Virus record (IMG/VR): IMGVR_UViG_3300002301_000012
Span: 1 to 64,000 of that record
Reading direction: 5' to 3' (one strand)
Length of the DNA: 64,000 nt
DNA from: a virus
A program made the position numbers and the translations under genes. Position 1 is the stretch's first letter. Each line of letters opens with the position of its first letter. Positions 37,811-63,691 of this stretch are shown in pieces. The notes under the pieces are model-generated. The model ran no database searches, was not told where the DNA came from, and saw nothing but the letters and a program-made list of their open reading frames with translations.

Positions 37811-38548
37811 GTGCCAGAGTTAAAATCACCGAAACATGAATATTTTGCTATCGGCATCACAAACGACGTAAACCCTACGGAGGCTTACATTTCCGCTGGG
37901 TATTCGAAAGCTGGCGCGGCTGCCGGCGCATGGAGATTGTTAAATCTCAAAAAAATTCGTGATAGGATTAACGAATTACGAGCAGAAAGACACGCTGCCA
38001 TCACAAAACGTGTGATAGAAGGCGAGATTCTGACGACGACTGAATGCCTGATTGCTGAACGCAATCAACAGGTTAGGCTAAAGTGGCAGCGGTATCAAAA
38101 GCTATCACAAATTGTGCAGGAACGGACATCGTTCTTCACTGATCCAAAGAACGAGGCGATAATCGCACTGGGTGGACCGGACAAGCTTCCAGGCGTCGAT
38201 ACTGGCTTCGTGACGCTACGGTACAGGACACTTGGCCGAAAGGTCGTGCCGGAACTGAATCTGGATGTGCCTTTGTTGCGCGAGATGAGCTTACTGGAGG
38301 AACAGGTCGGTCGAATGATGGGATTCATCCAGCCGATCAGTATTAGCCAGACGAACAACAGTCAGACGGTCGCTGTGCAAGCCGTTCAGGCGAATGTATA
38401 CATGCGGGACAAGCCACCTGAATTAGTCGGTCGGTCTGTTGATCAATTGCGAAAACTGATGGACCTCGCCAAGGCATGTCAGGCTTCTGGCGTTCACGTG
38501 GAACTGCCGCAACTTTCAGCGCCGCCTCCTGCTGCCGATGCTCGGTGA
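37811..38548 (+). CDS. terS: Terminase small subunit
   Basis: KHEYFA...TEAYISAGYS...AWRLL...IRDRINEL HTH pattern; overlaps terL. Confidence 0.8.
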   Translation: MPELKSPKHEYFAIGITNDVNPTEAYISAGYSKAGAAAGAWRLLNLKKIRDRINELRAERHAAITKRVIEGEILTTTECLIAERNQQVRLKWQRYQKLSQIVQERTSFFTDPKNEAIIALGGPDKLPGVDTGFVTLRYRTLGRKVVPELNLDVPLLREMSLLEEQVGRMMGFIQPISISQTNNSQTVAVQAVQANVYMRDKPPELVGRSVDQLRKLMDLAKACQASGVHVELPQLSAPPPAADAR

Positions 38549-40283
38549 AGAGTTATTCACGAAAACGCAGAATGCTGCTGTCTGGTCCGCAATGTACCAG
38601 CCAGAAATCTATCGAGACAGGCCCGATGACTTTTCGCACATGGTGCTCGACTCCGAAACATGGAGCAAGCAAAGCGAAATACTCAACAGCTTATGTCGTT
38701 ATGGGCAGACGTGGGTTAAAGCCTGTCACGGTTCAGGCAAGAGTTATGCTGCGGCGCTGGCTTTGCTGTACTGGCTTGGGATCTGGGACGATGGCGTAGT
38801 CATATCAACCGCGCCGAAACAAGATCAAGTTGAACGCATACTCTGGGGAGAAGTTCATGCTGCGATTCGTCGCAGCAAGTATCCGTGGCCGCAGCCAAAC
38901 GTCGCCAGCCTGCGATTCAACGAAAAGCGTTATGCGACAGGAACGACCACTACAGTTACAGCGCAAAAAGGTTCAACAGCATTTCAGGGCACACACTCCG
39001 GCCATGTCCTGATCATCGTGGACGAGGCACCTGGTATTCATCCTGCAATCTGGGGTGCTATCGAAGGTATTCGTGCGGCCGGCTACGTCCGCGTGCTGGC
39101 ACTCGGCAACCCAACTATTCCCAGCGGTCCATTTTACGATGCTTTCACCACTCGGTCGCCGAACATCAACTGCATTACGATTTCAGCATTCGACACGCCG
39201 AACTTCAAAGACGTGTATCTGAAGTACATAGACACACAGACTGGCAAAATCGTTATTTTCGGCAACCTCAACGGGCGCAACCTTCTGGAGATGGATGTCG
39301 ACGAACTGAACGACAATCCTGCGCCATATCTGACGACCAAAAGCTGGGTGCGCGAACTGTACGACAAGGTGGGACCGGATCACTACAGCTTCATATCGCG
39401 AGCGCTGGGACAATTCCCGCACGAAGCACCGGATTCTCTTATCTCTCTTCGTTGGCTGGAACTGGCTGCCGAACGCGAGTTCTTTGCGGAAGATAATGAC
39501 AAACCGATCAAAGGTGGTATCGACGTTGCCGGCCCAGGCGAGGACGAGACAACACTGTTTTTGCGCCAAGGTCGGAACGTGCTGCTACAGAAGGCATATC
39601 CAGAGGCTGACCCAACAGGACGTGTGCTGGCTGATCTGATGCCGTTTAGGGATCGCATAGAAAACCTGAATATCGATGCTGATGGGATCGGATACTACTT
39701 CGCCAAAACCATCGAAAGCAATGGCTACAAGGTAACGTTTTGCCACGCTGGATGGGCAGCTATCGACACAGATCAATTCTTCAATTGGAAGGCTGAGATG
39801 TACTGGGGTTTCCGGATGCGGTGTCAGGCCGGCGACATCGCGGGATTAAAGGATTCCGTCACCTCTGGACAATTAACCACAATCCGTTGGAATAATAACC
39901 CCAGGGGTCAGACGGTGATAGAGTCAAAAGAGGATGCGAGGAAGCGCGGCGTGAAGTCACCGGATCGCGCAGAAGGAGCGATGCTTGCCTTCGCAGAGGC
40001 TCCAGTGCATGGAATCCTCGAACTTTGGCGCGATGAGTATGAGGCGCAAAAGCGCAAGGCACCAGAGCCTCGCGGTCCGAAGGTGGAGGATACCACCGCG
40101 ATACCGTTTAAAGAGCAGGCAGCCGCAGCCAAAGAAGAATCCGAAGTGCCATGGACTAAGGCACCAGAATCAGCGCCTAAGCTACCAGCGCGGCCTGTGT
40201 GCGACCAGTGCGGTTCCACTGGCGTCCGTGTATTCAGCGAGGCGTGGCAATGCGCTGTGTGCGGTGCAAGCGGTAAGATCTGA
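38538..40283 (+). CDS. terL: Terminase large subunit with a C-terminal zinc ribbon
   Basis: Walker A ACHGSGKS, Walker B IIVDEA, LGNP, nuclease motifs GIDVA, IDADGIG and SPDRAE. Confidence 0.93.
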   Translation: MLGEELFTKTQNAAVWSAMYQPEIYRDRPDDFSHMVLDSETWSKQSEILNSLCRYGQTWVKACHGSGKSYAAALALLYWLGIWDDGVVISTAPKQDQVERILWGEVHAAIRRSKYPWPQPNVASLRFNEKRYATGTTTTVTAQKGSTAFQGTHSGHVLIIVDEAPGIHPAIWGAIEGIRAAGYVRVLALGNPTIPSGPFYDAFTTRSPNINCITISAFDTPNFKDVYLKYIDTQTGKIVIFGNLNGRNLLEMDVDELNDNPAPYLTTKSWVRELYDKVGPDHYSFISRALGQFPHEAPDSLISLRWLELAAEREFFAEDNDKPIKGGIDVAGPGEDETTLFLRQGRNVLLQKAYPEADPTGRVLADLMPFRDRIENLNIDADGIGYYFAKTIESNGYKVTFCHAGWAAIDTDQFFNWKAEMYWGFRMRCQAGDIAGLKDSVTSGQLTTIRWNNNPRGQTVIESKEDARKRGVKSPDRAEGAMLAFAEAPVHGILELWRDEYEAQKRKAPEPRGPKVEDTTAIPFKEQAAAAKEESEVPWTKAPESAPKLPARPVCDQCGSTGVRVFSEAWQCAVCGASGKI

Positions 40284-42097: not shown

Positions 42098-42730
42098 TCA
42101 AAATTGCAAAACCCCTTGGCTCAATCTTTTGGCAGAGATTTCACAATACCGCTCCTCGATCTCGATTCCGATGCACCGACGATTTAGATCCTTGCAGGCA
42201 CGTGCTGTTGTGCCAGATCCTAAGAACGGGTCCACAATTAATTCACCTTCCAGCGATGCACGATTGATAAGCCACTTCCATTGATCGATAGGCTTCGGAC
42301 AGGGATGGCCGTTCTTTTCTGCTGCGGTTGTCGCAGTGTAAGAATCAGGACGAGAGCCTTTCCCCGCATATGGGTCAGTGCCGTAAAACAGGATCGGCTG
42401 CCAACAAGTGAATCCCCACGGATTGACGCCAGATCCGGCAGGATAGGAAAAACTTCCGATCCAGTCCGGTTGAGGGTATCTGAATAGATGGCGGATTCCG
42501 CTGGTTAAAGCGATTCGCTTGGTAGAAAATCGCAATAGTGCAAGAACGGACAGTGCCAGCGTAACATCGTCTGCTGAATCGTGGCCGCTGGCGTAGTTCT
42601 CTCCGATGCCATACTGAGGATCTGTAATTGCGGCGTCGAAACCTGCCTCGCATAATGCAGGCAGTAGATCCAAGCAGTTCGCGTGGTAAATCGTAATACC
42701 AGCCTGTTCATCCACGAAGTAAGGTTTCAT
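42098..42730 (-). CDS. DNA methyltransferase (N4C/N6A, beta class)
   Basis: ITDPQYG, HPCPKP, VDPFLGSGTT and GIEIEERYC motifs. Confidence 0.85.
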   Translation of the reverse strand: MKPYFVDEQAGITIYHANCLDLLPALCEAGFDAAITDPQYGIGENYASGHDSADDVTLALSVLALLRFSTKRIALTSGIRHLFRYPQPDWIGSFSYPAGSGVNPWGFTCWQPILFYGTDPYAGKGSRPDSYTATTAAEKNGHPCPKPIDQWKWLINRASLEGELIVDPFLGSGTTARACKDLNRRCIGIEIEERYCEISAKRLSQGVLQF

Positions 42731-43099
42731 TTTTGTTCGAAGTCCAATATACGCTGGTTGGCAAAGCGAAGTCGAGTCCTGCCAGCACGCCAGAGCTTAC
42801 CAAGGCGGCTGCGCTCTGCTGGCGACCGGCGCGACCATACCAGCTTCATTGCGGCGCTGCGGTTGCCGTTCACGGACGGCCTGTTTTTTCTCGTTGACAG
42901 TTCGCCTCTCAATGGATAATACTATAGCAAGTAGTGAGCGACGAGACAACAGGAAATACAGTATCGATCAAGGCAAGGCTACGCAAGTGCCGCTTTTGCG
43001 GTTACGAGTGGGCGCTCAGATCGCTATTGCGTCCTGAGCCGACACGGTGCCCTAACAACGCCTGTCGGTCGACACGGTGGAAGGAAGGAACGAGGAGAC

Positions 43100-43930
43100 G
43101 TGGAAAAAACAAACCAGCCTGAAGAAAATCAGGTAGTAATACAGGAGGCATCGTCGGACCTTCAGTTCTCGATCCACATGGAGCGCGTTCAGCAGGGTCC
43201 AACGTTCAACGACCTGCGCAAGATGTCGCGGCACGAGCGGTTGCGCCCGCTCATAGAGCAGCGCAAAGACCGCATCTATGCGGCTCCGTGGAAGTTCGAA
43301 CCTGAGTCGCGGTACTGGCGCGGCAGCGATACGATCCAGATGTCGCGAAGGCTGACAGAAGTATTTGCTGAGCCAGACGGCCTGATTCCATTTCAAAAGT
43401 GGCTGCGCATCGTGCTGGAGGATGTGTTCGTTGTCGATGCGGTCGCAGTGTATATCGAGAAGCGAGCGTTCAAGAAGCCACTATCAGAGGTTTTCCCTGA
43501 TGGAATATCGGAAACGACCATTCGGCCTTACTTTCGACTGATCGATCCTTCCACGATTGCATTAATAGTCGACCAGTTCGGCAACCGGCCAGTCTACACA
43601 GCAGAGCATCCTGTGCCGTTTGCAGTGCAGGCAACGGACGACGAGCCAGTGTTTTTCAGCGAAAAGGAGCTTTACCACGGCATTCGGCACGACCGGCGCA
43701 AAGACGGCTGGCTGTGGGGCAAGAGCAAGATCGAGCAGGTCGCGGCGCTGGAGTACGAGTGCTCGCAGATGGTACTGAAGGAAAGCAAAGACAAGGCCAT
43801 GTTCGGCGTGTTTGAACCGCTGATTGGCGACACTGCCGGCGACCTGGACTGGCTGGAAGAAATGATCAACGGAATTGTTATGCAGTGCTACGGTGAGACG
43901 CATTGCCGGTTCCGCTGGCTGGTGAACTGA
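43100..43930 (+). CDS. Truncated portal-protein paralogue
   Basis: VFAEPDGLIPFQKWLRIVLEDVFVVDAVAVY aligns with FWAKPDGFNTFRQWLRMLSEDLLVCDAVACY of the true portal at 48721. Confidence 0.75.
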   Translation: MEKTNQPEENQVVIQEASSDLQFSIHMERVQQGPTFNDLRKMSRHERLRPLIEQRKDRIYAAPWKFEPESRYWRGSDTIQMSRRLTEVFAEPDGLIPFQKWLRIVLEDVFVVDAVAVYIEKRAFKKPLSEVFPDGISETTIRPYFRLIDPSTIALIVDQFGNRPVYTAEHPVPFAVQATDDEPVFFSEKELYHGIRHDRRKDGWLWGKSKIEQVAALEYECSQMVLKESKDKAMFGVFEPLIGDTAGDLDWLEEMINGIVMQCYGETHCRFRWLVN

Positions 43931-44069
43931 TTTTATGAGTTACGTGTGGGCTGATCCGTCGAGTAAAGATTGCATTGGCAAAGATGACGAACGTCCTTCA
44001 CTGGCCGGGGCGATTTTTCTGGTCGTTCTGATCGTTGCGGCGCTTTCATTCTGGAAAGGACAGTAGGCT

Positions 44070-44441
44070 GTGCATCAGTCCATCCTCTACGACATCCTCG
44101 GTGTAAAGCGCGGCGCTACGGTTGACGAAATCAACAAAGCGTATCGCAAGCGAGCGTTCGACCTGCATCCGGATCGAAACCATAATCCAGATGCGCTGGA
44201 ACAGATCAATCTACTGAATGTCGCGCGGGCCACGCTGGTCGACAAAAAGAAGCGAACGCAGTACGATGCCTCATTGATTCGGCTAGGCGGTGTCAGCCAC
44301 GCCTGGTTCTGTCCTGAGTGCGATAACGTGCAGGTCTTTGTCAGCCAATACATCTGGAAGTGCAATGTATGTGGGCTGTGGGGAAGGCTGATCAAGGTAG
44401 CTGCTTACATCGGTGAGGAAGTGAAGGAGGTTCCCGCGTGA
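44070..44441 (+). CDS. DnaJ (J-domain) protein with a C-terminal zinc ribbon
   Basis: LYDILGVKRGATVDEINKAYRKRAFDLHPDRN contains the HPD motif; CPEC...CNVC. Confidence 0.88.
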   Translation: MHQSILYDILGVKRGATVDEINKAYRKRAFDLHPDRNHNPDALEQINLLNVARATLVDKKKRTQYDASLIRLGGVSHAWFCPECDNVQVFVSQYIWKCNVCGLWGRLIKVAAYIGEEVKEVPA

Positions 44442-44751
44442 TAGCGTACTGGTTCACTTGGTTATTTCTGGCTCTGGCAATAGCGTTCAACATGTATGTT
44501 CACTGGCGTGTTCGGCACGACCCAATGTGGCCGGATCGAGCGTTAGACGAACTGAGGTACACAATTCGCACTTTTCGGATTGTTGAACGACGGAAGGCTA
44601 TACGTAAATACAAGCAGAAGATTGCTGAAGGAATGCGGCGACCTAGGAAGGTCGAGATCATTGAATACGTGTGGGGACGCTGCATGACCAACACTGAAAT
44701 CGAGTTTCTGATTTATGGGAATAACCTGATCGGTGGCAGGAGGTTTCCGAA

Positions 44752-45027
44752 GTGACACAATCCATGCTCAACTTTGATCCGCCATCCATCCCGGTCAATG
44801 TGACAGTGGACCAGCGGGAAGTCAAACGCCTGTCGAAGCAGTGCGCCGCTATCCTCGAACGACTGCAAGCCGGCGATGCCACGAACCACGAACTGGCGCA
44901 GATTGCTCTGAAGTACACCAGCCGAATAAGCGACCTTCGTGCAGCTGGATACCAGATCGAAGTGGCTTCTCGCGATCACGATTCCGGCCTTGTTTGGTAT
45001 AGACTAGTCAAGGAGAAAACGCAATGA
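44752..45027 (+). CDS. Winged-helix DNA-binding protein
   Basis: QCAAILERL...YTSRISDLRAAGYQIE...VWYRL. Confidence 0.65.
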   Translation: MTQSMLNFDPPSIPVNVTVDQREVKRLSKQCAAILERLQAGDATNHELAQIALKYTSRISDLRAAGYQIEVASRDHDSGLVWYRLVKEKTQ

Positions 45028-45439
45028 CGAAGCCTGATTTGATGCTTTGCATGGCAGCCGCCGCTTGTTTATTTATGGTACGCGGTTCGGCCATGTACTT
45101 GCTTCGTTATTGGCACTGGTGGCGAGCACGTAAAGCTCTTGAGCGATTGCAGACACTAATGCAAAGCAGCGGTCCTGAGACATCGTACAAGCTGGCTATC
45201 GTTCAGCAGGCGTTGCTGGAACGCAAACCGCGACTGTTTCCTGTTCTTCGCGCCAACATCAATGCGTTGCGCGCGCTGGCCATTCTGTTGCCGGTAGCGA
45301 TAAAGACTGTACTTCTGTGGAACCACGAGTTAACGTGGACATTCGTGGCCAGCCGGTATCCTGCCGAATGGAAACGGGCGTGCGCGATTTGTCCTAAATA
45401 CGAAACAGTTCGCCAGCGGGAAGGCGTGAAGGAAATCGC

Positions 45440-45961
45440 ATGATCTTTGAGCGCATCGGGCGGATATTCGCTCCCTCAAATTCGGTTGAAAAACCGGAAG
45501 TGGCCACCGATAAACCGTTGATAGAAAAGCCAGTTGCAGATGAGGCGAATTGCTCAAGCATAAAGGGCAGATCGATGGTCGGCTACTCTCGGCGTGGGTT
45601 CTTGGGAATGCTGGCATCAGCTGCGGTCGCCTCTGAGATAAAAAAACCAGAATGGTTGAGCGAAATTCGGGATCGCGCTGATGCTCATGTTGCCAATCTC
45701 GCAGACGGTGGATACTACGACATAAAGTGGCCTATCAAAACGCGGTGGCATGAGTTCGGTGTTTTGTGTACAGAAACACTAGAGGTTTTTATTCCGATGC
45801 AATCGCCTGTTGGTCTATCGCGTGGCGAGTACCATGTATCGGAGACTGGCGTTTTTACCTTCAATCAGGCCGACGCGAATAAAACCGTATCGATTTCACA
45901 CAATGAATACGCGCGAAGAAAGTGTCCGGCGACTGCTGCGCTACCGTGGGACCACCGATGA
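45440..45961 (+). CDS. Chimeric protein: twin-Arg-like motif, capsid-like C-terminal segment and tail-tube-like segment
   Basis: SRRGFLG motif; two segments align with this phage's capsid C-terminus and tail tube (see findings). Confidence 0.5.
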   Translation: MIFERIGRIFAPSNSVEKPEVATDKPLIEKPVADEANCSSIKGRSMVGYSRRGFLGMLASAAVASEIKKPEWLSEIRDRADAHVANLADGGYYDIKWPIKTRWHEFGVLCTETLEVFIPMQSPVGLSRGEYHVSETGVFTFNQADANKTVSISHNEYARRKCPATAALPWDHR

Positions 45962-47361
45962 AATTGATTCTGTTTGGTTTGATCCTGATTAGCGCCAATA
46001 TCGCAGTGATCTGGTTGACGTTGCAGTTTCTACCGGCGACAGTCTGGCCGGTACTGTACTATCGCAAGGCGCAACGCGCATGGGTGAAACACTCCCCTTT
46101 GCTTGATGCCAGGTGGCGTCGGCTGAAGTACTGGCCGCACAAAGTCGCTCGGTCCTGGATTGAACGCTGGATGATTTGGCGTGTCCGCGAATACTTTCTG
46201 TGGTTCCCTGATCGGACCACCTGTCCAGCGTGCGGAAAGAAGGCTGTTCATCCGTTCGAGTTCCATCCGCAGGCGCGAGTCCTTCGAGTGACTTGCTTAC
46301 GCTGCAAAGCCAACTTTCCGAAGCAGCCGATATATAGTGCGGCATCGTGGATGCCGGATCTACCAGTGGCAAAACCAAACAAGGAGCAGGAGTAGAAAAA
46401 AATGAACGAAGAACCTCAATCGAAAGAACCATCTGGATTTGTTGTGCCAGTGAAGGCGATATCTGAAACACGGCTGGTTCACCAGGCCATTCAGGTATCG
46501 CGGCGCGACGAGCGAAACAGGGAAAACCATTCACTCGGTCTGCATGTGGATCGGATTCCGACCTGTCCAGACTGTCCACCGTACAGAGAGACACGTGCAT
46601 GACCGGCGACCAGCGGATGTTCATTCGAAGACATTTGCAGTTTTTCGAGGAGGTTGATCCTCGGAATGGCAGACGCGCTGCAATTCGGGCGGCTTACGAT
46701 TCAGGAATTAAAGCGCTGGAGATCGCTCGGTTTCTGCGGGTTCATCACAAAGCCGTCTATGCGGCAATACACCACAAACGGCCGGCCAAGACAACACTGG
46801 AGATGGCGCGGAAGCAGATCATCACCGCCCGCAAAGCGATGTCACGAGCGCAAAGTGCATTGCGTGTTGCCGAAGGCAAAGAACGGGCGGCGCTGGAAAG
46901 GTTGAAGCTACGAGCATGAGGCGCGTAAAGACTGCCGTTCCTATGGATGAGTGCAAGCGCAGGGTGTTAGCATTCATCCGCAAAGAGCCTAAGCGTTTAC
47001 ACAAAGCCTCTGAGTTTGCCTGTGAAATATGGCCTGACTCGGAATTTACAGCGCAAGGTGCCGGAGCCGCTGCTAGTCGTATTCTCAAGGCTTTGGAAAA
47101 AGATAACCTGGTTGAATGGATCAGTTCGACTGCGGACTGGGGATGGAGGTTACGATGAGCCTTGAAGTCTACGGCGACGGCGATGCGGAAGACCTCTGCG
47201 AACTCGCAAACCGCTACGATCACAGCCTGTATCCAGATGGCAAGTGGCGCGAAGACGACTCGGAGCCAGGTAAGACCGACGCCGAGATGTGGGAGTACGT
47301 GGAAGACAGACGGCAATCGGATCTGGAGGATATGGCGTTGAGCGGGGAGGATATGGCGTGA
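45958..47361 (+). CDS. Run of short hypothetical genes (membrane/Zn-ribbon protein 45958-46395, then 46402-46602, 46599-46919, 46916-47158, ~47155-47361)
   Basis: Coupled starts and stops. Confidence 0.45.
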
Positions 47362-48587
47362 GTTTCGAGATCAGGCAGGGTCATACGCTCGACTTGCTCC
47401 GTGCGATGCCAACCGATAGCGTCCATTGCGTCTGTTCCTCGCCCCCCTACTGGGGGCTGAGGGATTACAAGATCGAACCTCAGATATGGAACGATCCCGG
47501 CAACTGCGAACATCACTTTACGGATGAAGAAATCGCTACTGAAGTCGGCCGGGGAAATTGGGCGCAGGCGGTTAATGGCCGTGGGGAGGCACAAGGAGAT
47601 ATCGCTGCCTTCCGTGAACCGATCCGAGCGACACAGTCGCGGGGCTTCTGTGCGTGTGGTGCCTGGCGTGGGCAACTCGGCATGGAGCCGACGCCGGAAT
47701 TATTCATCGCGCATATTACCGATATCTTCCGCGAAGTACGCCGGGTGCTCAGACCAGACGGTACGTGCTGGATCAATATTGGTGACTCGTATGCCGCGCA
47801 TCCTGGACAGCGCAAGACGACGGATAAGGCTGGTCCTAAGCAGCAGACGAATACAGCGTCTCCCCAGACGCCTTCACGCTGCGTCGATGGCCTTAAAGCC
47901 AAGGATCTCGTTGGCATTCCGTGGATGATGGCCTTTGCGCTTCGTGCCGACGGTTGGTATCTGCGTTCTGAGATCATCTGGCAGAAAATCAATCCCATGC
48001 CGGAATCGGTACGTGATCGACCGACAAAGGCGCATGAGCAAATCTTTCTTTTATCAAAGTCTTCAAAGTATTGGTACGACGCTGATGCGATTAAGGAACG
48101 GGCCGGAGACGATACGCACGCTCGATACGCGCGGGGTCGATCAGACGACCACAAATGGGCCGATGGTGGACCAGGCAACCAATCCATAGCGAAATCATTC
48201 GCGCATATGGCAAACCGCGAACGTGTCCGCGCGGCTGGCGTGAATCCGAAGTGCGCCGAACCGGGCAGCGGGATCAAGCAGAACTCCAGTTTCAGCGCAG
48301 CGGTCAAAGACATCGTTGAATACCGCAACAAGCGCGACGTATGGCCGATGGCTTCCATGCCAACACCGGAGGCGCATTTTGCTACCTTCCCGCTGGAGTT
48401 GCCGGAAACCTGTATTCTCGCTGGTTGTCCGCCGGATGGTCTGGTGCTCGATCCGTTTTCCGGGGCCGGAACCACTGGACTCGCCGCACTGAAGCATGGT
48501 CGTAGCTTTCTCGGGCTGGAACTCAATCCTGAATACATCGCCATCGCCCATTCCCGCCTGAACAAAAGGATGCCCCTGTTCGCTTAA
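47358..48587 (+). CDS. DNA methyltransferase (N4C/N6A, beta class)
   Basis: CSSPPYWGLRDY, NIGDSY, HFATFP, LDPFSGAGTT and GLELNPEY motifs; GTG start after GGAGG. Confidence 0.9.
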   Translation: MSFEIRQGHTLDLLRAMPTDSVHCVCSSPPYWGLRDYKIEPQIWNDPGNCEHHFTDEEIATEVGRGNWAQAVNGRGEAQGDIAAFREPIRATQSRGFCACGAWRGQLGMEPTPELFIAHITDIFREVRRVLRPDGTCWINIGDSYAAHPGQRKTTDKAGPKQQTNTASPQTPSRCVDGLKAKDLVGIPWMMAFALRADGWYLRSEIIWQKINPMPESVRDRPTKAHEQIFLLSKSSKYWYDADAIKERAGDDTHARYARGRSDDHKWADGGPGNQSIAKSFAHMANRERVRAAGVNPKCAEPGSGIKQNSSFSAAVKDIVEYRNKRDVWPMASMPTPEAHFATFPLELPETCILAGCPPDGLVLDPFSGAGTTGLAALKHGRSFLGLELNPEYIAIAHSRLNKRMPLFA

Positions 48588-48720: not shown

Positions 48721-51700
48721 ATGGCCAACTTCCAGGTACCAGAAGGCGCAAAGCGTCTTGGACCGATCAATGCTTTGATCGGAACGCAACCAACACAAGT
48801 CGCTGGTGTTTCGCCGTCGTTCTGGTTTTCTCCTCTTCAGCCTGTAACGCCAACAGCGCCATCCGATTACAAACCTCGCCAGTGGGGCTATCAACCTGGT
48901 GCCAACCTCATTTGGCAGCCGAAGTCGGACGAAGGCTACGGTTACGATCTGCTGCGTCAACTGTCTTTGTCTTGGGATCTTCTTCGCATGGCGCTGGAGA
49001 TGAAAAAGGACGAAATCGGAGATGTCGAGTTCGAACTTCGGCTGAAGCGACAGGACAACGAGAAGCAGGCAGACTACAAAAACAGGACGCTGAAAGGCGC
49101 GAAAGAACTGCAAGACCTTAAGCAGTTCTGGGCCAAGCCGGATGGTTTCAATACGTTCCGGCAGTGGCTTCGTATGCTATCCGAAGATCTTCTGGTCTGC
49201 GATGCCGTAGCCTGCTATCTTCCGCGCGACAACAAAGGCAAAGTCGCGATGGTCATGCCGACTGACGGCGCATCGTGGAACAGGCTGCTCACCGATCAGG
49301 GAATCACTCCTCGCGATCCAACCAGCGCTGCATACCAACAGGTTTGTTACGGCTTCCCTGCATGGGATGGTACAACGCAGGACGTCGTGTTCAGTATGCA
49401 GAACCCGACAACATACCGGCGCTATGGGTACTCCCGCGTTGAAAGATGCCTGACAACAGTGGCCTTCGGTATTCGTCGTCAGATGTTCCAGATTGCGGAG
49501 TACTGCTATTCATCCGACACTGAGGTACTGACAAGCCGTGGTTGGCTGAAGTGGCCTGATGTCACCATGGACGATACATTTGCAACGCGGCGCATGGAAA
49601 GTGGCGAGTTTGAATGGCAGAAGGCTGAAGGTTACATTCGGAAACAGTTCAACGGTAATTTGATCCGTTTCAAAAATGTAAGCCTTGACATTTTGGTGAC
49701 GCCAAACCACAGGATGCTCGTTGGTGACCTGCCCGGCAGATACCAGCGCGGTTGTCCTACAGCAAAAGTTCCTCGCATCAAAGAGTGTTTAGTCGAAGCT
49801 TCCAATTTGGCTCTTCAGAGAGCGTTGTCAGGCCCGAACATTTCGGCGTGGATTCCACAGGTTTCCGAATGGAATGGCGGCGTCCGTATCGAAGACAAGG
49901 TGTGGTTGTCTCCGAACAACAAAGAGATAACCGTTCGCATGACAGGTGATCAGTACTGTGCCTTCATGGGCATGTACTTGGCAGAGGGATGCGTTGGCGG
50001 CAGCGAAAAACCTACACTTGTTCATATCTGCCAGCCAAAAGACAAAAAAGGAATCCATCAGATTTTCAGTGACATGTTGTCTGAGATCTTTGGTGCAGAC
50101 GTACACCACGACGGAAAGATGTTTTCATGGTCACGAAAATCATTGGCCTTGTACCTTCGGCAATTCGGGCTAGCAAATGAAAAGTTCATACCTGAAGAGA
50201 TTAAGAACGCGCCCAAAGATCAATTACAGATATTCTGGCGATACTACGCATTGGGTGATGGCGAATCGGCGACTGCTATCGGCGAAAAGAAACGTTCTCA
50301 GCAGGTATTCACTGTTAGTAAAAAACTGTCTGACGATCTGACGGAAGTTGTGCAAAAAATAGGTTTGCGCCCAAATGTCGGTGTTCGCGCTGCGGGCAAA
50401 GCCTTTTTCGGTAAACCAGGACTGGGACGTGAAATAAACGCTAGTGAAGGCTATACGATAACTGCGACCGACCAGCCATGCACAAGAAATTGGGATGTTG
50501 AATTTGTCCCTTACGATGGTGAAGTGTTCTGCGTATCGGTGCCGAACCACACGTTGTATGTTCGGCGCAATGGGAAACATGCGTGGTGCGGGAACACGGC
50601 CGGCAATATACCGGAAGCGTTTTTGTTCATGCCTTCGGACATTCCACCGCAGCGACTGAAGGAGTTTCAGGATTACATCGATTCGATCCTAAGCGGTAAT
50701 CTTGCGGAGCGTCGCAAGATCCGTATGATGCCTGGATTCGGCGACAGCGGCAAACCGAACATCGTGTTCCCGAAGGAAGCGCTGCTCAAAGATGAACTGG
50801 ACGTGTGGTTGGCGCAGCTGGTTTGTGCGATTGTCGGCGTGAGTGCGCAGCCGTTCCTCAAAATGGTGAATCGCGCAAGTTCAGAAGAAGCGAACGACGC
50901 AGCCCGCGAAAAGTGGCTGAAGCCTGATGTCGATTTCTTTTGCGAGTACATTAATACCTGCCTTGAGCGCATGGGAATGGATCAGTACGAAATAGCTGCG
51001 AAGGCGCAGCGCGATACCGATCCACTGAAGCAGGCGCAGGCAGATGCGGCGGTGTGGGGTAAGGTTTACACGCCGAACGAACTTCGCGAGCAGCGCGGAG
51101 AAGATCCTGTGGAAGGCAAGAACGCAAACCGGCTCGGTGTACTCAGTCCGATGAACGGTTTCATGCCACTCGATCCTGATGATGACGATCTGGCTTTGAT
51201 GCAGCAAATGAAGGCTACTCCTCCCAAACCTGACGGAAGTGGTGGAGGTGGAGGTTCGCCGGCACCGAACGGCGGCGGTAGCGGTGGCAGCCCGAAGCCG
51301 AAGACTAAACCATCTGCAAAGAAATCGTTGGCAGCAACGTGGGATCTTGAAAAAGATCACAAGTACGGATGTATCATGGTTCCAATCGATCCAGCGTCCG
51401 AAGCCGGTCTTCGCATGAAAGCAATGAGGGATGCAATACCAGATGCAGACCTGATGGAAGGCAACGGAACCTCGCGCGAGGAAGAACCGCATGTCACTGT
51501 GCGATACGGGATCAAGGACGGCGGCGAAGGTCTGCCGGAATACCTGACTGGCCTTGCACCATTCACGCTGAAGTTCGGTAAAACAATGGCATTTGCGCCT
51601 TCTGAACAGTCTGATGGCGCGGCTCCGCTGGTGGTTCAGGTTGATTCGCCTGAGTTGCACGCAGTTAACGCACAGTTGGCACAGGAAGCGACGTTCAAAG

Positions 51701-53913
51701 AGGCTACATTCGACTACCATCCACACGCGACGCTGGCATACGTCGCGCCTGAACGCGCACAGCGGTACGTTGACGACGACTATCTGGACGGCGTGGAATA
51801 TCCAGTGCGGTCCATTGTGATTACAATGCCAGATGGAAGTTCGCAGGAAATCATGCTGACAGGCGGATTCGCAGCACCTGCGAAGTTCAGCGGAAGCGCT
51901 GCGCTGCGGCCAGCGTCATCGCGCATCAAAAATAAAAATAAAAAACCGACGAAAGGCGTCACGCCTCCACCGATAGACCTATCGGACAGCACACAGATCG
52001 ATTCCGGTTATCGCAGCAGTCCAGGTGCAACGCAGTCAAGTACTGTAGCAGTCGAGGACGGTGGCCAAGTGGAGCCGGGAGGCGTGGACGAAAACAATCC
52101 GGCTGAAGATCCACCACGCGCAGATCACAAACCAATGCAGCGAACGGTCCATGCGTTCTTTAAGGCGCAGGCGGCCGCTGCTTTCGACCGACTTAAGCGG
52201 ATCGGTGAACTTCACAAGGTCATCAAGGCGTCAGATGATGGCGATGATCAGGACGATGATGCTGAGCGCATCGGCGAAGCAGAACTGCTGTCCGCTGCGA
52301 ATGACATAAACTGGCGCGAACTGATACCACAGGTTCTGGCGCATCTGCAAGAGGCTGGCAACTTCGGTGTTGTGAACGGTCTGCATCGCGCGGCAGTGGC
52401 CGGTGTCGGTGAAACGTCGGCTTCCATCGGACCAGCACAAACGCTTGCTGCTGAATACGCTAAGGACCGCGCTGCCGAAATGGTCGGCATGAAATGGGTC
52501 GACGGCGAACTGGTCGAAAATCCGAACGCAATGTGGGCTATCAGCGACACAACGCGAGACCAGTTGCGTGAAATAATCGCGCAGGCACTATCGGAAGAAA
52601 CGCCGATTGACGTGCTTGCCGAACGTATCCGCGATGCTGGTTCGTTTTCTGAATCGCGTGCGGAGACTATCGCCAATACTGAGATCGCAACGGCACAGGA
52701 GAAAGGCGTTACTGGCTCGTGGAAGGCTACAGGAGCAGTTGAGAAGGTGCGCTGGTCTCCATCGTCGCTCGGGCCATGTCCGGAGTGTCTGGACAACGTT
52801 TTGGCAGGTTCAATACCGTTTGGAGATACTTTCCCCACTGGTGTATTAGCTCCTCCGAACCATCCGAACTGCTTCGCTGGTGATGCAGTCGTATCGGCCA
52901 GCGGAGTTTCGGTAGCGTACAGTCGTTGGTTTGAAGGGGAAGTCATCATCCTGCGAGTCTCTGGCGCACCAGACATTACCGTCACGCCAAATCACCCGAT
53001 ACTGACGCAACGTGGATGGGTCGCTGCTGGTGATTTGGAACTCACGGATAAGGTCTTGCAGTGCGTTGATCCAAATCTGGCTGTCTCCCTGATGAACCCA
53101 GACGATAATCACATGGAAACCGGCATCCAGGAGATAGCGCACACGCTTGGGATGTCGCACAGCGTGTTGTTCAGTATTGTGCCAACCTCCACCGAAGACT
53201 TCCACGGCGATGGAATCGCCAACGGCAAAGTCGATATTGTAGGCACCGCAGGCGCGCTGTCTTGTGACCAGTCCGATAGAATTCAGCACAGAGAAAACAC
53301 GCTGCTCTGCGCTCTGCATGAGCGGGGGCTTTTGCTGAATAGCGATTGCGTGCATCCGTTTGGTATCTTCGGGGACGATTCTTCCGCGACTGGCAGCATG
53401 AGCAGCAGCGGTCTGATGAAGTCGTTGGTCTTTGGTCAGTTGTCCCATGCGGACAATGGCGGCTTCATGGGTTCCACGGACCATCAAACCAGAACGCTTG
53501 AAAGCTTTGATGATCATTGTATGGTGGGTGTCATGCCTTTTCCCGATAGACAAAGCAGACTCACCAGCCAAGTAGCTTGTGTGCATAGCCATCAATTCGG
53601 GCAGCGTGAATTTGCAGTCTCTTCCTTTGCGCATCGGATCGCCCGGTTGGCGAAGAGAGATTCCAGAACGAATCAAGTTAAGACGAACCATACCGTAACC
53701 AAGCTGGTATCGCGCACAAATAGTCTGGAGCGTGTCGCCAGCCTGATACGCTTTGCAGATGTCGTCAAGTTGTGGAAGAATCGTTTTGCGGGGCATGTGT
53801 TTAACCTCAGTACAGATACCGGCACGTATTTTGCTAACACTATACTTGCACACAACTGTCGGTGTGCTTTGATTATCACAAAGGTTCGCGGTAAAGAGGA
53901 GAAAGCAGCATGA
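48721..53913 (+). CDS. Portal + 2H phosphoesterase + MuF (minor head) fusion with two inteins
   Basis: Portal motifs at about 48721-51180; HVT and HAT 2H motifs at 51490 and 51724; MuF motifs RAETIANTEIATAQ, CPEC and PPNHPN/CRC; two HINT domains. Confidence 0.88.
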   Translation: MANFQVPEGAKRLGPINALIGTQPTQVAGVSPSFWFSPLQPVTPTAPSDYKPRQWGYQPGANLIWQPKSDEGYGYDLLRQLSLSWDLLRMALEMKKDEIGDVEFELRLKRQDNEKQADYKNRTLKGAKELQDLKQFWAKPDGFNTFRQWLRMLSEDLLVCDAVACYLPRDNKGKVAMVMPTDGASWNRLLTDQGITPRDPTSAAYQQVCYGFPAWDGTTQDVVFSMQNPTTYRRYGYSRVERCLTTVAFGIRRQMFQIAEYCYSSDTEVLTSRGWLKWPDVTMDDTFATRRMESGEFEWQKAEGYIRKQFNGNLIRFKNVSLDILVTPNHRMLVGDLPGRYQRGCPTAKVPRIKECLVEASNLALQRALSGPNISAWIPQVSEWNGGVRIEDKVWLSPNNKEITVRMTGDQYCAFMGMYLAEGCVGGSEKPTLVHICQPKDKKGIHQIFSDMLSEIFGADVHHDGKMFSWSRKSLALYLRQFGLANEKFIPEEIKNAPKDQLQIFWRYYALGDGESATAIGEKKRSQQVFTVSKKLSDDLTEVVQKIGLRPNVGVRAAGKAFFGKPGLGREINASEGYTITATDQPCTRNWDVEFVPYDGEVFCVSVPNHTLYVRRNGKHAWCGNTAGNIPEAFLFMPSDIPPQRLKEFQDYIDSILSGNLAERRKIRMMPGFGDSGKPNIVFPKEALLKDELDVWLAQLVCAIVGVSAQPFLKMVNRASSEEANDAAREKWLKPDVDFFCEYINTCLERMGMDQYEIAAKAQRDTDPLKQAQADAAVWGKVYTPNELREQRGEDPVEGKNANRLGVLSPMNGFMPLDPDDDDLALMQQMKATPPKPDGSGGGGGSPAPNGGGSGGSPKPKTKPSAKKSLAATWDLEKDHKYGCIMVPIDPASEAGLRMKAMRDAIPDADLMEGNGTSREEEPHVTVRYGIKDGGEGLPEYLTGLAPFTLKFGKTMAFAPSEQSDGAAPLVVQVDSPELHAVNAQLAQEATFKEATFDYHPHATLAYVAPERAQRYVDDDYLDGVEYPVRSIVITMPDGSSQEIMLTGGFAAPAKFSGSAALRPASSRIKNKNKKPTKGVTPPPIDLSDSTQIDSGYRSSPGATQSSTVAVEDGGQVEPGGVDENNPAEDPPRADHKPMQRTVHAFFKAQAAAAFDRLKRIGELHKVIKASDDGDDQDDDAERIGEAELLSAANDINWRELIPQVLAHLQEAGNFGVVNGLHRAAVAGVGETSASIGPAQTLAAEYAKDRAAEMVGMKWVDGELVENPNAMWAISDTTRDQLREIIAQALSEETPIDVLAERIRDAGSFSESRAETIANTEIATAQEKGVTGSWKATGAVEKVRWSPSSLGPCPECLDNVLAGSIPFGDTFPTGVLAPPNHPNCFAGDAVVSASGVSVAYSRWFEGEVIILRVSGAPDITVTPNHPILTQRGWVAAGDLELTDKVLQCVDPNLAVSLMNPDDNHMETGIQEIAHTLGMSHSVLFSIVPTSTEDFHGDGIANGKVDIVGTAGALSCDQSDRIQHRENTLLCALHERGLLLNSDCVHPFGIFGDDSSATGSMSSSGLMKSLVFGQLSHADNGGFMGSTDHQTRTLESFDDHCMVGVMPFPDRQSRLTSQVACVHSHQFGQREFAVSSFAHRIARLAKRDSRTNQVKTNHTVTKLVSRTNSLERVASLIRFADVVKLWKNRFAGHVFNLSTDTGTYFANTILAHNCRCALIITKVRGKEEKAA
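49504..50595 (+). mobile_element. Intein 1 (364 aa) with a LAGLIDADG-type endonuclease, in the portal domain
   Basis: Starts CYSSDTEVLT; block B VTPNHRM; FMGMYLAEG and YYALGDG motifs; ends LYVRRNGKHAWCGN followed by Thr. Splicing restores AEY-TAGNIPE. Confidence 0.9.
52846..53796 (-). CDS. DUF559/Vsr-like endonuclease with tandem HTH repeats, antisense to intein 2
   Basis: Two HTH-like repeats (YQAGDTLQTICARYQL, YLAGESALSIGKRHDT); nuclease core AEQRV...YNIDFAV...IAVEVFGGGWH...LLDAGFHVIIVW; GAGG-N8-ATG at 53796. Confidence 0.82.
   Translation of the reverse strand: MPRKTILPQLDDICKAYQAGDTLQTICARYQLGYGMVRLNLIRSGISLRQPGDPMRKGRDCKFTLPELMAMHTSYLAGESALSIGKRHDTHHTMIIKAFKRSGLMVRGTHEAAIVRMGQLTKDQRLHQTAAAHAASRGRIVPEDTKRMHAIAIQQKPPLMQSAEQRVFSVLNSIGLVTRQRACGAYNIDFAVGDSIAVEVFGGGWHNTEQHAVRHPKRVRYLLDAGFHVIIVWVHQGDSQIWINALQDLIREFQITSSDPSTLRQYRVIWRDGNVWCARDSQDDDFPFKPTTVRYRNSAGRYDCITSEAVRMVRRS
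52870..53856 (+). mobile_element. Intein 2 (329 aa) in the MuF HPNCRC motif, with no in-frame nuclease
   Basis: Starts CFAGDAVV; block B ITVTPNHPIL; block F/G GHVFNLSTDTGTYFANTILAHN followed by Cys. Confidence 0.92.
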
Positions 53914-57927: not shown

Positions 57928-59559
57928 ATGTCAAGCCAAGCACTCGCAAGTCTGGCACTTCTCGGTAAATCTCTCGGCCAGGAGATGATGGCCACACTTC
58001 GAAAGGACGTCACGACTTCGGGGCTTAGCTCGACATCGCAGTTGTCGTACTACTACCTGGAACAGACGGCCAAGAACATCTACCCGGTGTTCTATCCGAT
58101 TCTGGCCAGCACGCCTCGTGTCTCGCCGGAATGGGGTGGCCAGCGCGTCGGTGGTACGTCGGTCAACTGGAAAGCAGTTGTTTCCATCGCCAATGGCGGT
58201 GCGCCGTGGACGTCGGAAGGCAACCGCAACGCCTACATGAACTTCACCACACGGAACTACACGGCGCAGCATAAGTCGTGGGGTCCGGACGTGAAGGTTA
58301 CGTTCTTCGCGCAGCAGGCTGGTCTCGGATTCGACTCGAATCTGGCCATCGCTCAGATGGGCGCACTGAACCAACTGCTCAACGACGAAGAGCGCATGAT
58401 TCTGTTCGGCAACAGCGGACCGGCCAGCGCAGGTGGTAATGGTTTTGCGCTCGGACAGTGCGCAACGCCGACACTGACTGCGGCCACAACCGGTGGCGCT
58501 CTTGCAAGCGGACTGACTTGCACAGTGTTTTGCGTCGAACTGACTGGCTGGGGCGTTCGCTATGCCGGCACGATTGCTTACGGGCTGGCTGGCGGTGGCC
58601 TTGGTAAGAGCGGCGTTCAGCTTCCGTTTACACGGACCAATGCGGACGGTTCTACCGACATCATCAACGGTGGCACTGGCATCGTATCAGCGACGTCTGC
58701 CGAAGTAACGACTGGCGGCAGCGGTAAGGCTTCGCTGACTGCGACTGTCGTTGGTTCTGTCGCAGCAATGGGCTGGGCCTGGTATCTGGACACCACGGAT
58801 GCCAGCGTTGGCAATCTGGCGAACGCTTATTTCGTCGGCACGACAACCGTTCCGACCATCACAATCACTGCCGTGCCTTCGACGTCAACCAATCAGGTTG
58901 GTAGCGCAACCGGCGCGAATGGAACCAGCCTGTCCACAGACAACTCGTGGAATACGCTGGACATCGACGGTATCACAACCTGGAACATCGGCACGCAGGG
59001 TTCTTCGCAGCCTGCGTATCTGGCGAACCTTCAGGGCGCCGGATGGACTTCGAACGGTGACGGAACCATTGCGGAAATCGAAACAGCGGCCAACTACCTC
59101 TGGCAGAATTACGAAATCTCCATCGACCAGATTTTCCTCGGTGGTGCTCTCATTCAGTCGTTCTCCCGCGCTATCTTCACCACAGGCAGCGGAACGGCCG
59201 GAGCACAGCGCATCATCATCGACCGCGATGCGGCTGGCGGCGTAACAGGTGGACAGATCGTTCGCGAATACGTCTGGAAGTACAGCAACACTGCACTCCA
59301 GAAAATCGTTCCGGTCCGCGCGCATCCGTGGCTTCCCGGTGGTGTCTGCATGTTGGACCTGACGACCAATCCGTACCCGGCTGCCGGTGGCGCAATTCCG
59401 GCTGTTCGTCGCATGGTCATGCTTGAAGACCACTTTGCGATTCGCTTCCCGTACGTCAACTTGCAGCATCAGCTTGGCACGTACGCATTCGGCACGCTGG
59501 AGCATTATCTGCCTTTCGGAGGCGGATTTATCACTGGCGTTGCCAACAAGGTCAACTAG
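57928..59559 (+). CDS. Major capsid protein
   Basis: Position after protease/scaffold; strong RBS; DEERMILFGN and VRAHPWLPGG motifs; 543 aa with a Thr/Gly-rich insertion. Confidence 0.78.
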   Translation: MSSQALASLALLGKSLGQEMMATLRKDVTTSGLSSTSQLSYYYLEQTAKNIYPVFYPILASTPRVSPEWGGQRVGGTSVNWKAVVSIANGGAPWTSEGNRNAYMNFTTRNYTAQHKSWGPDVKVTFFAQQAGLGFDSNLAIAQMGALNQLLNDEERMILFGNSGPASAGGNGFALGQCATPTLTAATTGGALASGLTCTVFCVELTGWGVRYAGTIAYGLAGGGLGKSGVQLPFTRTNADGSTDIINGGTGIVSATSAEVTTGGSGKASLTATVVGSVAAMGWAWYLDTTDASVGNLANAYFVGTTTVPTITITAVPSTSTNQVGSATGANGTSLSTDNSWNTLDIDGITTWNIGTQGSSQPAYLANLQGAGWTSNGDGTIAEIETAANYLWQNYEISIDQIFLGGALIQSFSRAIFTTGSGTAGAQRIIIDRDAAGGVTGGQIVREYVWKYSNTALQKIVPVRAHPWLPGGVCMLDLTTNPYPAAGGAIPAVRRMVMLEDHFAIRFPYVNLQHQLGTYAFGTLEHYLPFGGGFITGVANKVN

Positions 59560-59594
59560 TTCGTTTTCAACGGATTAACAGGAGAAATAAGGAA

Positions 59595-62938: not shown

Positions 62939-63691
62939 ATGTATCAATTTGGTGATGGACTCATGTTCGTGGCTCCTGTGGGAGGCAACGAGGCGACCAA
63001 TCCTTCGCCGTCGCAATTGCTGACGGTCCAGAGTTTCAAATTCGACGTCAAGGTTACACTGGTGCCTCTGAAGGGGCAAAACCAGTTTCCCGATGACGTG
63101 GCACCGGGCGATAAAGAAGGGTCCGGATCTTTCGCCATCGGCAATAACCAAATCACGCAGGAGAACAATATTCTCTATGCCGATGCGCTGACAACAGGCA
63201 TTAAACAAGTGACGCAGCAAACGGCGGCTATTCCAGGTTCACCGTTTTCGATCACTGTGACCAACAGCGCCAACTTTTTCAAAGATCTTGGCGTGCGCAA
63301 CTCCGCGACAGGCGCATTTTTCCAAGCCGTGGCCAGCGGACCTACTGCTGGGCAGTATTCCGTCGCTGCTGGTGTGTATACATTTTCAACGGCAGACCAT
63401 ACTTCCGGTGTCAGTGTCATCATCAGCTATGCATGGACAGATTCCAGCGTCGGAAACACGCTGACGGTAAACAATCAACTGATGGGCTACGGACCAATCG
63501 TGGAAATCTGGTTCTCGGAAACCTATCAGAGCGTTTCAGGCAATCCGAACGGACTTCATCTGTTCAATTGCCGCATCGGATCGGTGAAAAAGGATATTAA
63601 GCGAGACGGCTATCTGGTGCCTGAATACGACTTCATGGCATATCCGAATTCGTCGAATCAGGTCTTCGAAGAGTTCCAGGTCGCCAACTAA
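62939..63691 (+). CDS. Major tail (tube) protein
   Basis: YQFGDG...LKGQNQFPDDVA...GQYSVAAGVYTF...NNQLMG; AAGGAG RBS; downstream hairpin. Confidence 0.75.
   Translation: MYQFGDGLMFVAPVGGNEATNPSPSQLLTVQSFKFDVKVTLVPLKGQNQFPDDVAPGDKEGSGSFAIGNNQITQENNILYADALTTGIKQVTQQTAAIPGSPFSITVTNSANFFKDLGVRNSATGAFFQAVASGPTAGQYSVAAGVYTFSTADHTSGVSVIISYAWTDSSVGNTLTVNNQLMGYGPIVEIWFSETYQSVSGNPNGLHLFNCRIGSVKKDIKRDGYLVPEYDFMAYPNSSNQVFEEFQVAN

Follow-up and report, generated by a model that had tools for sequence, protein, structure and literature searches.

Virion-protein-like modules in the terL-portal gap of a phage genome resemble assembly helpers more than immune decoys

In phage lambda and in T3/T7 the extreme C-terminus of the large terminase subunit (TerL) serves as docking element for the prohead/portal, and the satellite assembly redirectors CpmB of SaPI and Sid of P4 are small proteins occupying morphogenetic interaction sites of their helper phages. 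Fraser et al. reportedly described in 2006 that phage structural proteins carry promiscuous decoration modules, e.g. Ig-like domains. In the portals of studied phages, the wing contacts the scaffold and governs incorporation of the portal (PMC13386823), and terminase and tail dock on the clip (PMC12847820). J-domain proteins stimulate Hsp70 and determine its location, and the phage J-protein Rki, encoded by the T4-like phage RB43, binds DnaK and acts on sigma-32 (PMC3486835). Here, we analyse a block of genes at positions 43100-45961 of a 64,000-nucleotide window, i.e. the first 64 kb of the 94,040-bp IMG/VR record IMGVR_UViG_3300002301_000012 (completeness estimate 92%), lying between the terL and the portal gene. 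The block encodes a predicted wing-only portal homologue (o43100, the mini-portal), a J-domain protein with a zinc ribbon of the TerL type (o44070) and a protein combining a twin-arginine translocation (Tat)-type segment with a short piece of a tail-tube module (o45440). An initial annotation had described a cluster of diverged pieces of the phage's portal, terminase, capsid and tail-tube proteins in open reading frames (ORFs) at 43100, 44070 and 45440; all three ORFs are present there, and the portal, TerL ribbon and tube likenesses stand while the capsid likeness falls. These three likenesses are genuine, yet fit assembly helpers better than immune decoys.

Each ORF of the block was compared with 14 packaging/virion proteins, Smith-Waterman scores being judged against shuffles; the capsid and tube labels among these proteins derive from the position of the genes, from Atlas leads and from PHROG families without assigned function. 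As a control, an all-against-all comparison by the same procedure in the related phage G001 (94.9 kb) yielded no gene of the terL-portal gap resembling a virion protein, so the cluster of likenesses in the window is not an artefact of the method.

The mini-portal and its resident counterpart are located as follows.

43100..43930, + strand: o43100, 276-aa mini-portal, predicted to consist of wing only
48721-53913, + strand: portal gene, 1730 aa
48907..49275, + strand: N-terminal wing part of the resident portal (residues 63-185 of 1730), aligning pairwise with the mini-portal

Homology to the N-terminal portal wing extends over residues ~25-215 of o43100. The likeness to the resident portal is recovered by tblastn (1.3e-8) and by a Smith-Waterman score of 111 (z 15), to be compared with 39 +/- 5 for shuffles, 0/1000 of which reach 111, bearing out the mini-portal named in the initial annotation. 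A profile search with the mini-portal retrieves more than 1000 portals of 500-1400 aa (best E about 1e-21 to 3e-21), all matching profile positions ~31-195 only, equivalent to portal residues ~70-240. The portal-family invariants R40, P92 and W101 are kept, as are the nearly invariant D93, E107 and D108; the portal models of Pfam and PHROG do not detect o43100.

The AF2 model of o43100, built on a 68-row alignment, is compact and confident (pLDDT 87, pTM 0.83), and every top match in a structural search is a portal (Foldseek E 5e-10). The nearest solved structure is the portal of Staphylococcus phage 812 (PDB 8q7d/8qem/8qje), with a homologous wing and a VIA-align Z of 19.4 over 235 aligned residues. 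Because model residues 23-276 span residues 69-433 of the 812 chain with these 235 residues, leaving an internal gap of ~130 residues, the modelled mini-portal is composed of a first wing segment, a short connector and a second wing segment, with stem, clip, tunnel loop and crown excised. The lack of stem, clip and tunnel loop is seen in the length of 276 aa, in the AF2 model, in the portal matches stopping near position 195 and in the C-tail taking the place of the middle of a portal; that of the crown is seen in the protein ending with the second wing segment. The anatomy agrees with the domain map of the YonE portal, assigning the wing to 60-240 and 369-414, stem/clip/loop to 249-368 and the crown to 415-465 (PMC12847820). 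The C-tail (~225-276) is private to the short mini-portal proteins, portals being devoid of it, and is modelled as the second wing segment; this link comes from the structure model only, the second half of o43100 showing no pairwise likeness to the intein-free portal. Compared to portals, the mini-portal has half their size or less, carries its private C-tail, is encoded beside a complete portal and, as far as the model tells, contains neither the channel nor the terminase/tail docking site.

This anatomy bears on the decoy idea of the initial annotation, taken here to include shields: the pieces would bind portal, terminase or tube sensors without activating them, or mask the real proteins. 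STAND and other sensors indeed detect portal, TerL, major capsid protein and tail tube, EcAvs4 touches part of the wing, of which the mini-portal keeps a part, and Avs11 may use another recognition mode; the island, furthermore, holds two DNA methyltransferase genes and a weak Lar-like ribbon, conferring an anti-restriction flavour. However, EcAvs4 binds the portal stem and clip and SpbK binds the clip (PMC12847820), and these main contacts are missing from the mini-portal. Avs families wrap round core folds (bioRxiv 10.64898/2026.01.04.697583), whereas the TerL-like and tube-like pieces described below are peripheral modules of 27-28 aa. The predicted export signal of o45440 would moreover remove this protein from cytoplasmic sensors, and no PADLOC or anti-defence family matches the block. 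With stem and clip missing, the other pieces peripheral and one of them behind an export signal, we consider immune decoys unlikely.

Concerning the origin of the mini-portal, an exhaustive profile search uncovered four further short lineages of 250-321 aa (E-values of 1e-144 to 5e-44 being given for three of them). Full-length mini-portal ORFs are thereby found in five lineages sharing 33-54% identity, and in the tree they form a monophyletic clade (support 1.0) on a long stem. With the mini-portal, foreign portals yield 76 bits and the resident portal 48 bits, the latter ranking 163/166, in a comparison biased by the foreign portals having been picked by the profile search itself. Given its greater closeness to foreign portals, the mini-portal is, judged by sequence, an old paralogue or xenologue and no recent partial copy. 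The initial annotation spoke of copies of the phage's own proteins, which does not quite suit the other pieces either: their aligned DNA is 43-47% identical to the TerL, tube and capsid counterparts, and the third codon position agrees in 11/27 codons (41%) of the ribbon, in 7/27 of the tube-like piece and in 9/28 of the capsid-like piece. No relatives of the mini-portal were found in scans of viral, metagenome or genome contigs, nor in INPHARED phages by DNA or protein search. The mini-portal homologues P0003 and P0004 have an extra N-terminal extension of ~65 aa, which in P0003 is rich in Cys (C-x-C-G and C-x2-C-G pairs) and may represent a fused zinc-binding module.

The same data touch on the idea of the block products as weapons against competitors, the mini-portal acting as poison subunit or scaffold competitor against co-infecting phages or satellites and the J-ribbon protein blocking the docking of foreign terminases. 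A protein resembling foreign portals more than the resident portal, without the parts that form the channel, as expected of a dominant-negative protein, and distributed patchily among relatives, which is typical of conflict genes, fits this idea. Yet, the foreign portals were chosen by the search, a wing-only protein need not enter rings, and all portal subdomains make inter-subunit contacts. We regard an anti-competitor function as very unlikely.

The second protein joins a J-domain to a zinc ribbon resembling the end of the resident TerL.

44070..44441, + strand: o44070, 123-aa J-domain protein with C-terminal zinc ribbon
44085..44267, + strand: J-domain, residues 6-66, HPD at 33-35 (PF00226, 1.3e-19)
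44304..44390, + strand: zinc ribbon of the TerL C-terminus type, residues 79-107, Cys 81, 84, 98 and 101
38538-40283, + strand: TerL gene, 581 aa
40197..40280, + strand: C-terminal zinc ribbon of the resident TerL, residues 554-581, following a flexible linker past the nuclease domain

The J-domain is recognised by Pfam DnaJ (PF00226) with 70.5 bits at a cut-off of 27.8, as the initial annotation had it, and its tripeptide H33-P34-D35 is invariant in the homologue P0162. In NCBIfam and PADLOC scans the J-domain was the sole gain, the NCBIfam DnaJ models matching this domain only (40-62 bits at cut-offs of 300-600). The ribbon of o44070 has the spacing C-x2-C-x13-C-x2-C with a Trp two residues ahead of the third Cys. 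In TerL, PHROG 2 covers residues 26-497, and the remaining 84 aa form an extension past the terminase profiles, consisting of a Pro/Ala/Glu/Lys-rich linker and a ribbon of identical spacing including the Trp; among 12 zinc-ribbon-like motifs in the genome, spacing and Trp are common to TerL and o44070 only. Residues 81-107 of o44070 and 555-581 of TerL align without gaps over 27 aa (Smith-Waterman 61, reached by 1/1000 shuffles). When a hidden Markov model (HMM) of the two J-protein ribbons was run against 3143 six-frame ORFs, the top three non-self matches were TerL ORFs (E 6e-4, 6e-4 and 0.06; noise starting at 0.5). Matches of the o44070 ribbon are TerL C-termini only (four phage genomes, with a concordant genome search), including the TerL ribbon of L003 at 45% identity over 29 aa (tblastn E 1.5e-4). 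The TerL-like ribbon reported earlier is thus upheld with moderate strength. o44070 shows no PHROG or Pfam terminase match and, at 123 aa, is devoid of ATPase and nuclease domains. P0162 (140 aa, 55% identical to o44070) retains the J-ribbon fusion and the ribbon spacing, its ribbon being more conserved than its linker.

L003, L006 and other related phages were found via the o45440 family. TerL of L003 and L006 has a diverged core (best PHROG 979, not PHROG 2) and an apparent P-loop intein, and TerL of the window phage and of G001/G003 share the ribbon spacing despite cores in different PHROGs. L003 6604-8757 is the TerL of G001 (717 aa), the Walker A motif of which carries an apparent intein running from a Cys start to H-N and followed by S-G-K-T; this TerL ends in a zinc ribbon of the window-phage type. 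The portal gene of L003 and L006 is directly preceded by a J-domain gene, the product of which has a helical C-terminal domain in place of the ribbon. Because the J gene adjoins the portal gene there with a different C-terminal domain, the J-domain seems to belong to the conserved accessories of the head module, its targeting domains being open to exchange. A metagenome scan with the J-ribbon alignment returned generic J-domains only, 0/47 loci having ribbon, mini-portal or tube module, and a TerL scan of viral contigs gave no match.

Compared to known J-proteins, o44070 is like Rki a small phage J-domain with HPD and a short non-DnaJ C-terminal region, and by analogy would be expected to engage host DnaK. 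Unlike in Rki, this C-terminal region is a TerL-tail ribbon, and the gene lies in the head/packaging module, beside the portal gene in relatives; action on sigma-32 is a feature of Rki. With class A DnaJ (Hsp40) it shares a J-domain and a zinc-binding element, but it lacks the G/F region, the CxxCxGxG repeats and the C-terminal client-binding domains.

The third protein had been described as a capsid plus tail-tube chimera.

45440..45961, + strand: o45440, 173 aa, member of a small-protein family with invariant N-terminal dodecapeptide and Tat-type signal/anchor
45566..45637, + strand: Tat-like S-R-R-G-F-L-G (RR at 51-52), hydrophobic stretch and A-V-A site, the most conserved core of the family
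45821..45904, + strand: residues 128-155, a stretch of 28 aa that resembles the insertion module of tail tubes in its C-terminal half
63236..63454, + strand: insertion module (residues 100-172) of the putative tail tube p62939, source family of the o45440 piece

Members of the o45440 family have 107-176 aa and follow a common layout of dodecapeptide, variable linker (Cys-rich in some), Tat-type motif and variable C-terminal part. The dodecapeptide MIFERIGRIFAP is invariant, codon differences among phages being synonymous, and S-R-R-G-F-L-G, to be compared with the Tat pattern S/T-R-R-x-F-L-K followed by a hydrophobic stretch and an A-x-A site, shows little or no variation among six family members and the L003 to L006 copies; the hydrophobic stretch and the A-V-A site were seen by direct sequence reading. 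In o45440 the RR lies at residues 51-52 behind the conserved N-terminal peptide, and in the 107-aa L003 homologue, which is devoid of that peptide, at ~27-28 like in a classical Tat signal. The Tat-type segment of o45440 could be an uncleaved membrane anchor rather than an export signal. In G002 the family gene is located inside the head-tail module (L005 10001-10465) and does not adjoin the portal gene.

The tube half of the former chimera stands, short and peripheral as it is. An HMM built from three tubes alone matches o45440 residues 128-155 with E 1.7e-5 (noise from ~1), PHROG 8234, the family of p62939 (6e-33), also matches o45440 (E 1.2e-4), and the Smith-Waterman score of o45440 125-152 against p62939 134-160 is 52, reached by 0/1000 shuffles. 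The identity of p62939 as tube derives from gene position and an Atlas lead (YomU_Tube-like). The capsid half does not hold: against the capsid candidate p57928 the Smith-Waterman score is 44, reached by 23/1000 shuffles, and PHROG 13692, the family of p57928, matches o45440 with E 0.008, i.e. the likeness is at chance level. PDB sequence searches with the capsid and tube candidates gave no match. The insertion module of ~70 aa is conserved in the tail tubes of four phages, and G002 carries the full module (E 1.7e-17) in an ORF of 299 aa located between its capsid and neck genes (L005 8387-9286), the N-terminus of which looks like a head-tail connector. o45440 does not contain the full tube fold, its 28 aa matching the insertion module outside the tube core. 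Because these 28 aa match an insertion also found in the G002 ORF, the sequence likeness is best read as a shuffled surface module and not as a tube fold. Its presence in four tail tubes and in the G002 protein likens the insertion to promiscuous decoration modules; unlike for these, only its C-terminal half is detectable in o45440, where it would sit behind the export signal.

Such a patchwork raises the question of host takeover with incidental likenesses, in which the J-protein would rewire DnaK/heat shock like Rki, the ribbon would be generic, and mini-portal and tube scrap would be leftovers of hot-spot recombination. The terL-portal gap is variable in size (3.1 kb in L003, 8.4 kb in the window phage), the tube-like piece is present in the o45440 of the window phage only and missing from all homologues, the capsid likeness is at chance, and Rki demonstrates that global action is possible for a phage J-domain protein. 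Against this, the mini-portal is kept as full-length ORFs in its five diverged lineages with a private conserved C-tail and a confident fold, the J-ribbon fusion is kept at 55% identity with the ribbon more conserved than the linker, and only TerL shares spacing and Trp among the ribbon-like motifs of the genome. The unconserved debris considered in the initial annotation is hence not what is found for mini-portal and J-ribbon protein, and partly describes o45440. As a whole, we find the takeover explanation unlikely.

We tentatively prefer, as a possible rather than an established reading of the sequences, that the block products are modulators of assembly or packaging docking through borrowed modules; among the roles offered in the initial annotation, this one fits best and decoys are disfavoured on anatomy. 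From the observed homologies, domain contents, conservation and gene order we infer binding partners and an assembly role along the following lines. The block products would reuse docking modules of virion and packaging proteins. Since the mini-portal keeps the wing and has lost the channel, terminase-binding and tail-binding parts, it may occupy or regulate wing-binding partners, i.e. scaffold, capsid or portal subunits, at procapsid initiation. o44070 would be a minimal Hsp70 co-chaperone, its intact HPD J-domain being expected to recruit host DnaK, and because its ribbon is of the same kind as the end of TerL, it might bring DnaK to the docking target of the TerL tail, for which the portal vertex and the packaging complex are the likeliest candidates. 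o45440 would be a Tat-signal membrane/periplasmic protein of a conserved family which, in the window phage alone, appears to have acquired half of a promiscuous tail-tube decoration module. Unlike CpmB and Sid, which are satellite-encoded and directed against a helper, the block genes lie in the phage's own late region and give no hint of size redirection.

Several observations weigh against these modulators. The ribbon match spans just 27-29 aa with E-values of 1e-4 to 1e-2. The mini-portal was not found in three related phage genomes and so is not essential to the phage group. Conservation is lacking for the tube-like piece of o45440, which may serve no function. Mini-portal and J-protein, finally, need not cooperate, because TerL tails dock on the clip, which is missing from the mini-portal. 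A joint action of the two as a previously undescribed portal-vertex system, be it a chaperone checkpoint for portal incorporation/terminase docking or a sensor shield, we hold to be improbable.

As to the genome setting, the gene order on the + strand is TerS, TerL, the 8.4-kb gap, portal, followed by head, neck and tail genes, and the seven tightly packed genes of the block all lie inside the gap. Their further members and the small terminase gene are listed here.

37811-38548, + strand: TerS gene
43935..44066, + strand: o43935, 43-aa ORF with hydrophobic C-terminal segment (direct sequence reading), between the mini-portal and J-protein genes
44438..45443, + strand: o44438, o44752 and o45024, three small operon genes

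Stops and starts of the block ORFs overlap or are 4 nt apart, Shine-Dalgarno (SD)-like sequences lie 5' of the ORFs, and the composition is of coding type (GC1>GC2 and high GC3); the block forms an accessory operon, coupled at the level of translation, within the variable gap between terL and portal gene. A promoter and terminator scan gave counts no higher than chance. o44438 (105 aa) has a hydrophobic segment at its N-terminus, o44752 (91 aa) weak winged-helix matches and o45024 (139 aa) hydrophobic segments; none of the three shows significant virion-protein likeness when compared with packaging/virion proteins and with PHROG/Pfam, and o43935 has no family match in Pfam/PHROG scans. The weak pairs with z>3, o45440/p40428, o44438/p37170 and o45024/p59595, appear compositional and were rejected.

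The resident portal is a fusion of portal, 2H-phosphoesterase/2'-5' RNA ligase-like domain (~residues 880-1020, PF13563 5e-8) and MuF with two inteins. Intein 1 (~residues 262-625) starts with Cys, ends with Asn-Thr and contains a LAGLIDADG-like stretch, and intein 2 (~residues 1384-1712) lies within the MuF motif H-P-N|C-R-C; the portals of relatives (L003: 1015 aa) have no inteins. The block is flanked by two N6/N4 DNA methyltransferase genes, at 42098-42730 on the - strand and at 47289-48587 on the + strand; the minus-strand enzyme (210 aa) is perhaps truncated, its match to the Pfam model being confined to the C-terminal third. o45922 (45922-46395, 157 aa) combines a hydrophobic N-terminal segment with a C-x2-C-x20-C-x2-C ribbon, its matches to Lar (restriction alleviation) being weak and sub-threshold (Pfam 0.0057, NCBIfam 0.0045).

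Within the complete 94-kb record (G000), several large tail-fibre-like ORFs at 76271-92685 start with signal-peptide-like N-termini, i.e. a basic start, a hydrophobic run and then C-Y-A-Q or C-F-G-Q, which is unusual in virion proteins. These N-termini together with the Tat-type block protein suggest, as far as motifs can tell, that the phage may export several proteins. p57928 and its neighbour p59595 (57928-60944) share 20-27% identity over stretches of 200-450 aa with the tail-fibre-like giants (G000 72258-92685), a likeness seen with composition correction switched off and explicable by a repeat domain common to them or by composition.

There is no close cultured phage, the nearest portals (~35% identical) coming from Brevundimonas phages. 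Contigs from four public runs are 100% identical to the window with zero variants; those identical over window positions 43000-46400 come from freshwater, marine, fish-gut and soil metagenome runs, and the exact block proteins are on record from 75-79 contigs. This widespread clonal sequence may represent a very common phage or a laboratory/reagent contaminant. Both ends of the record (G000 1-130 and 93930-94040) lie in one 12-nt tandem repeat with the unit GTGGACTCGGCG or variants of it, giving VDSA/VYSA repeats when translated. Probably a single repeat array caused the break in the assembly, and the genome may close at this array.

As a summary, the block brings together modules of portal, terminase and tube, which form the virion assembly core and at the same time are main protein triggers of bacterial immunity. 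If its pieces are inert, the locus still records the terL-portal gap gathering and reshuffling modules. The zinc ribbon at the C-terminus of a large terminase was undescribed until now, and its combination with a J-domain suggests a direct phage route for aiming host Hsp70 at the packaging machine. Free-standing portal wings, unseen by Pfam/PHROG, would control the one-portal-per-capsid step or disturb portal recognition, and if the portal-vertex system were true, mini-portals would represent a new class of virion-protein-derived regulators.

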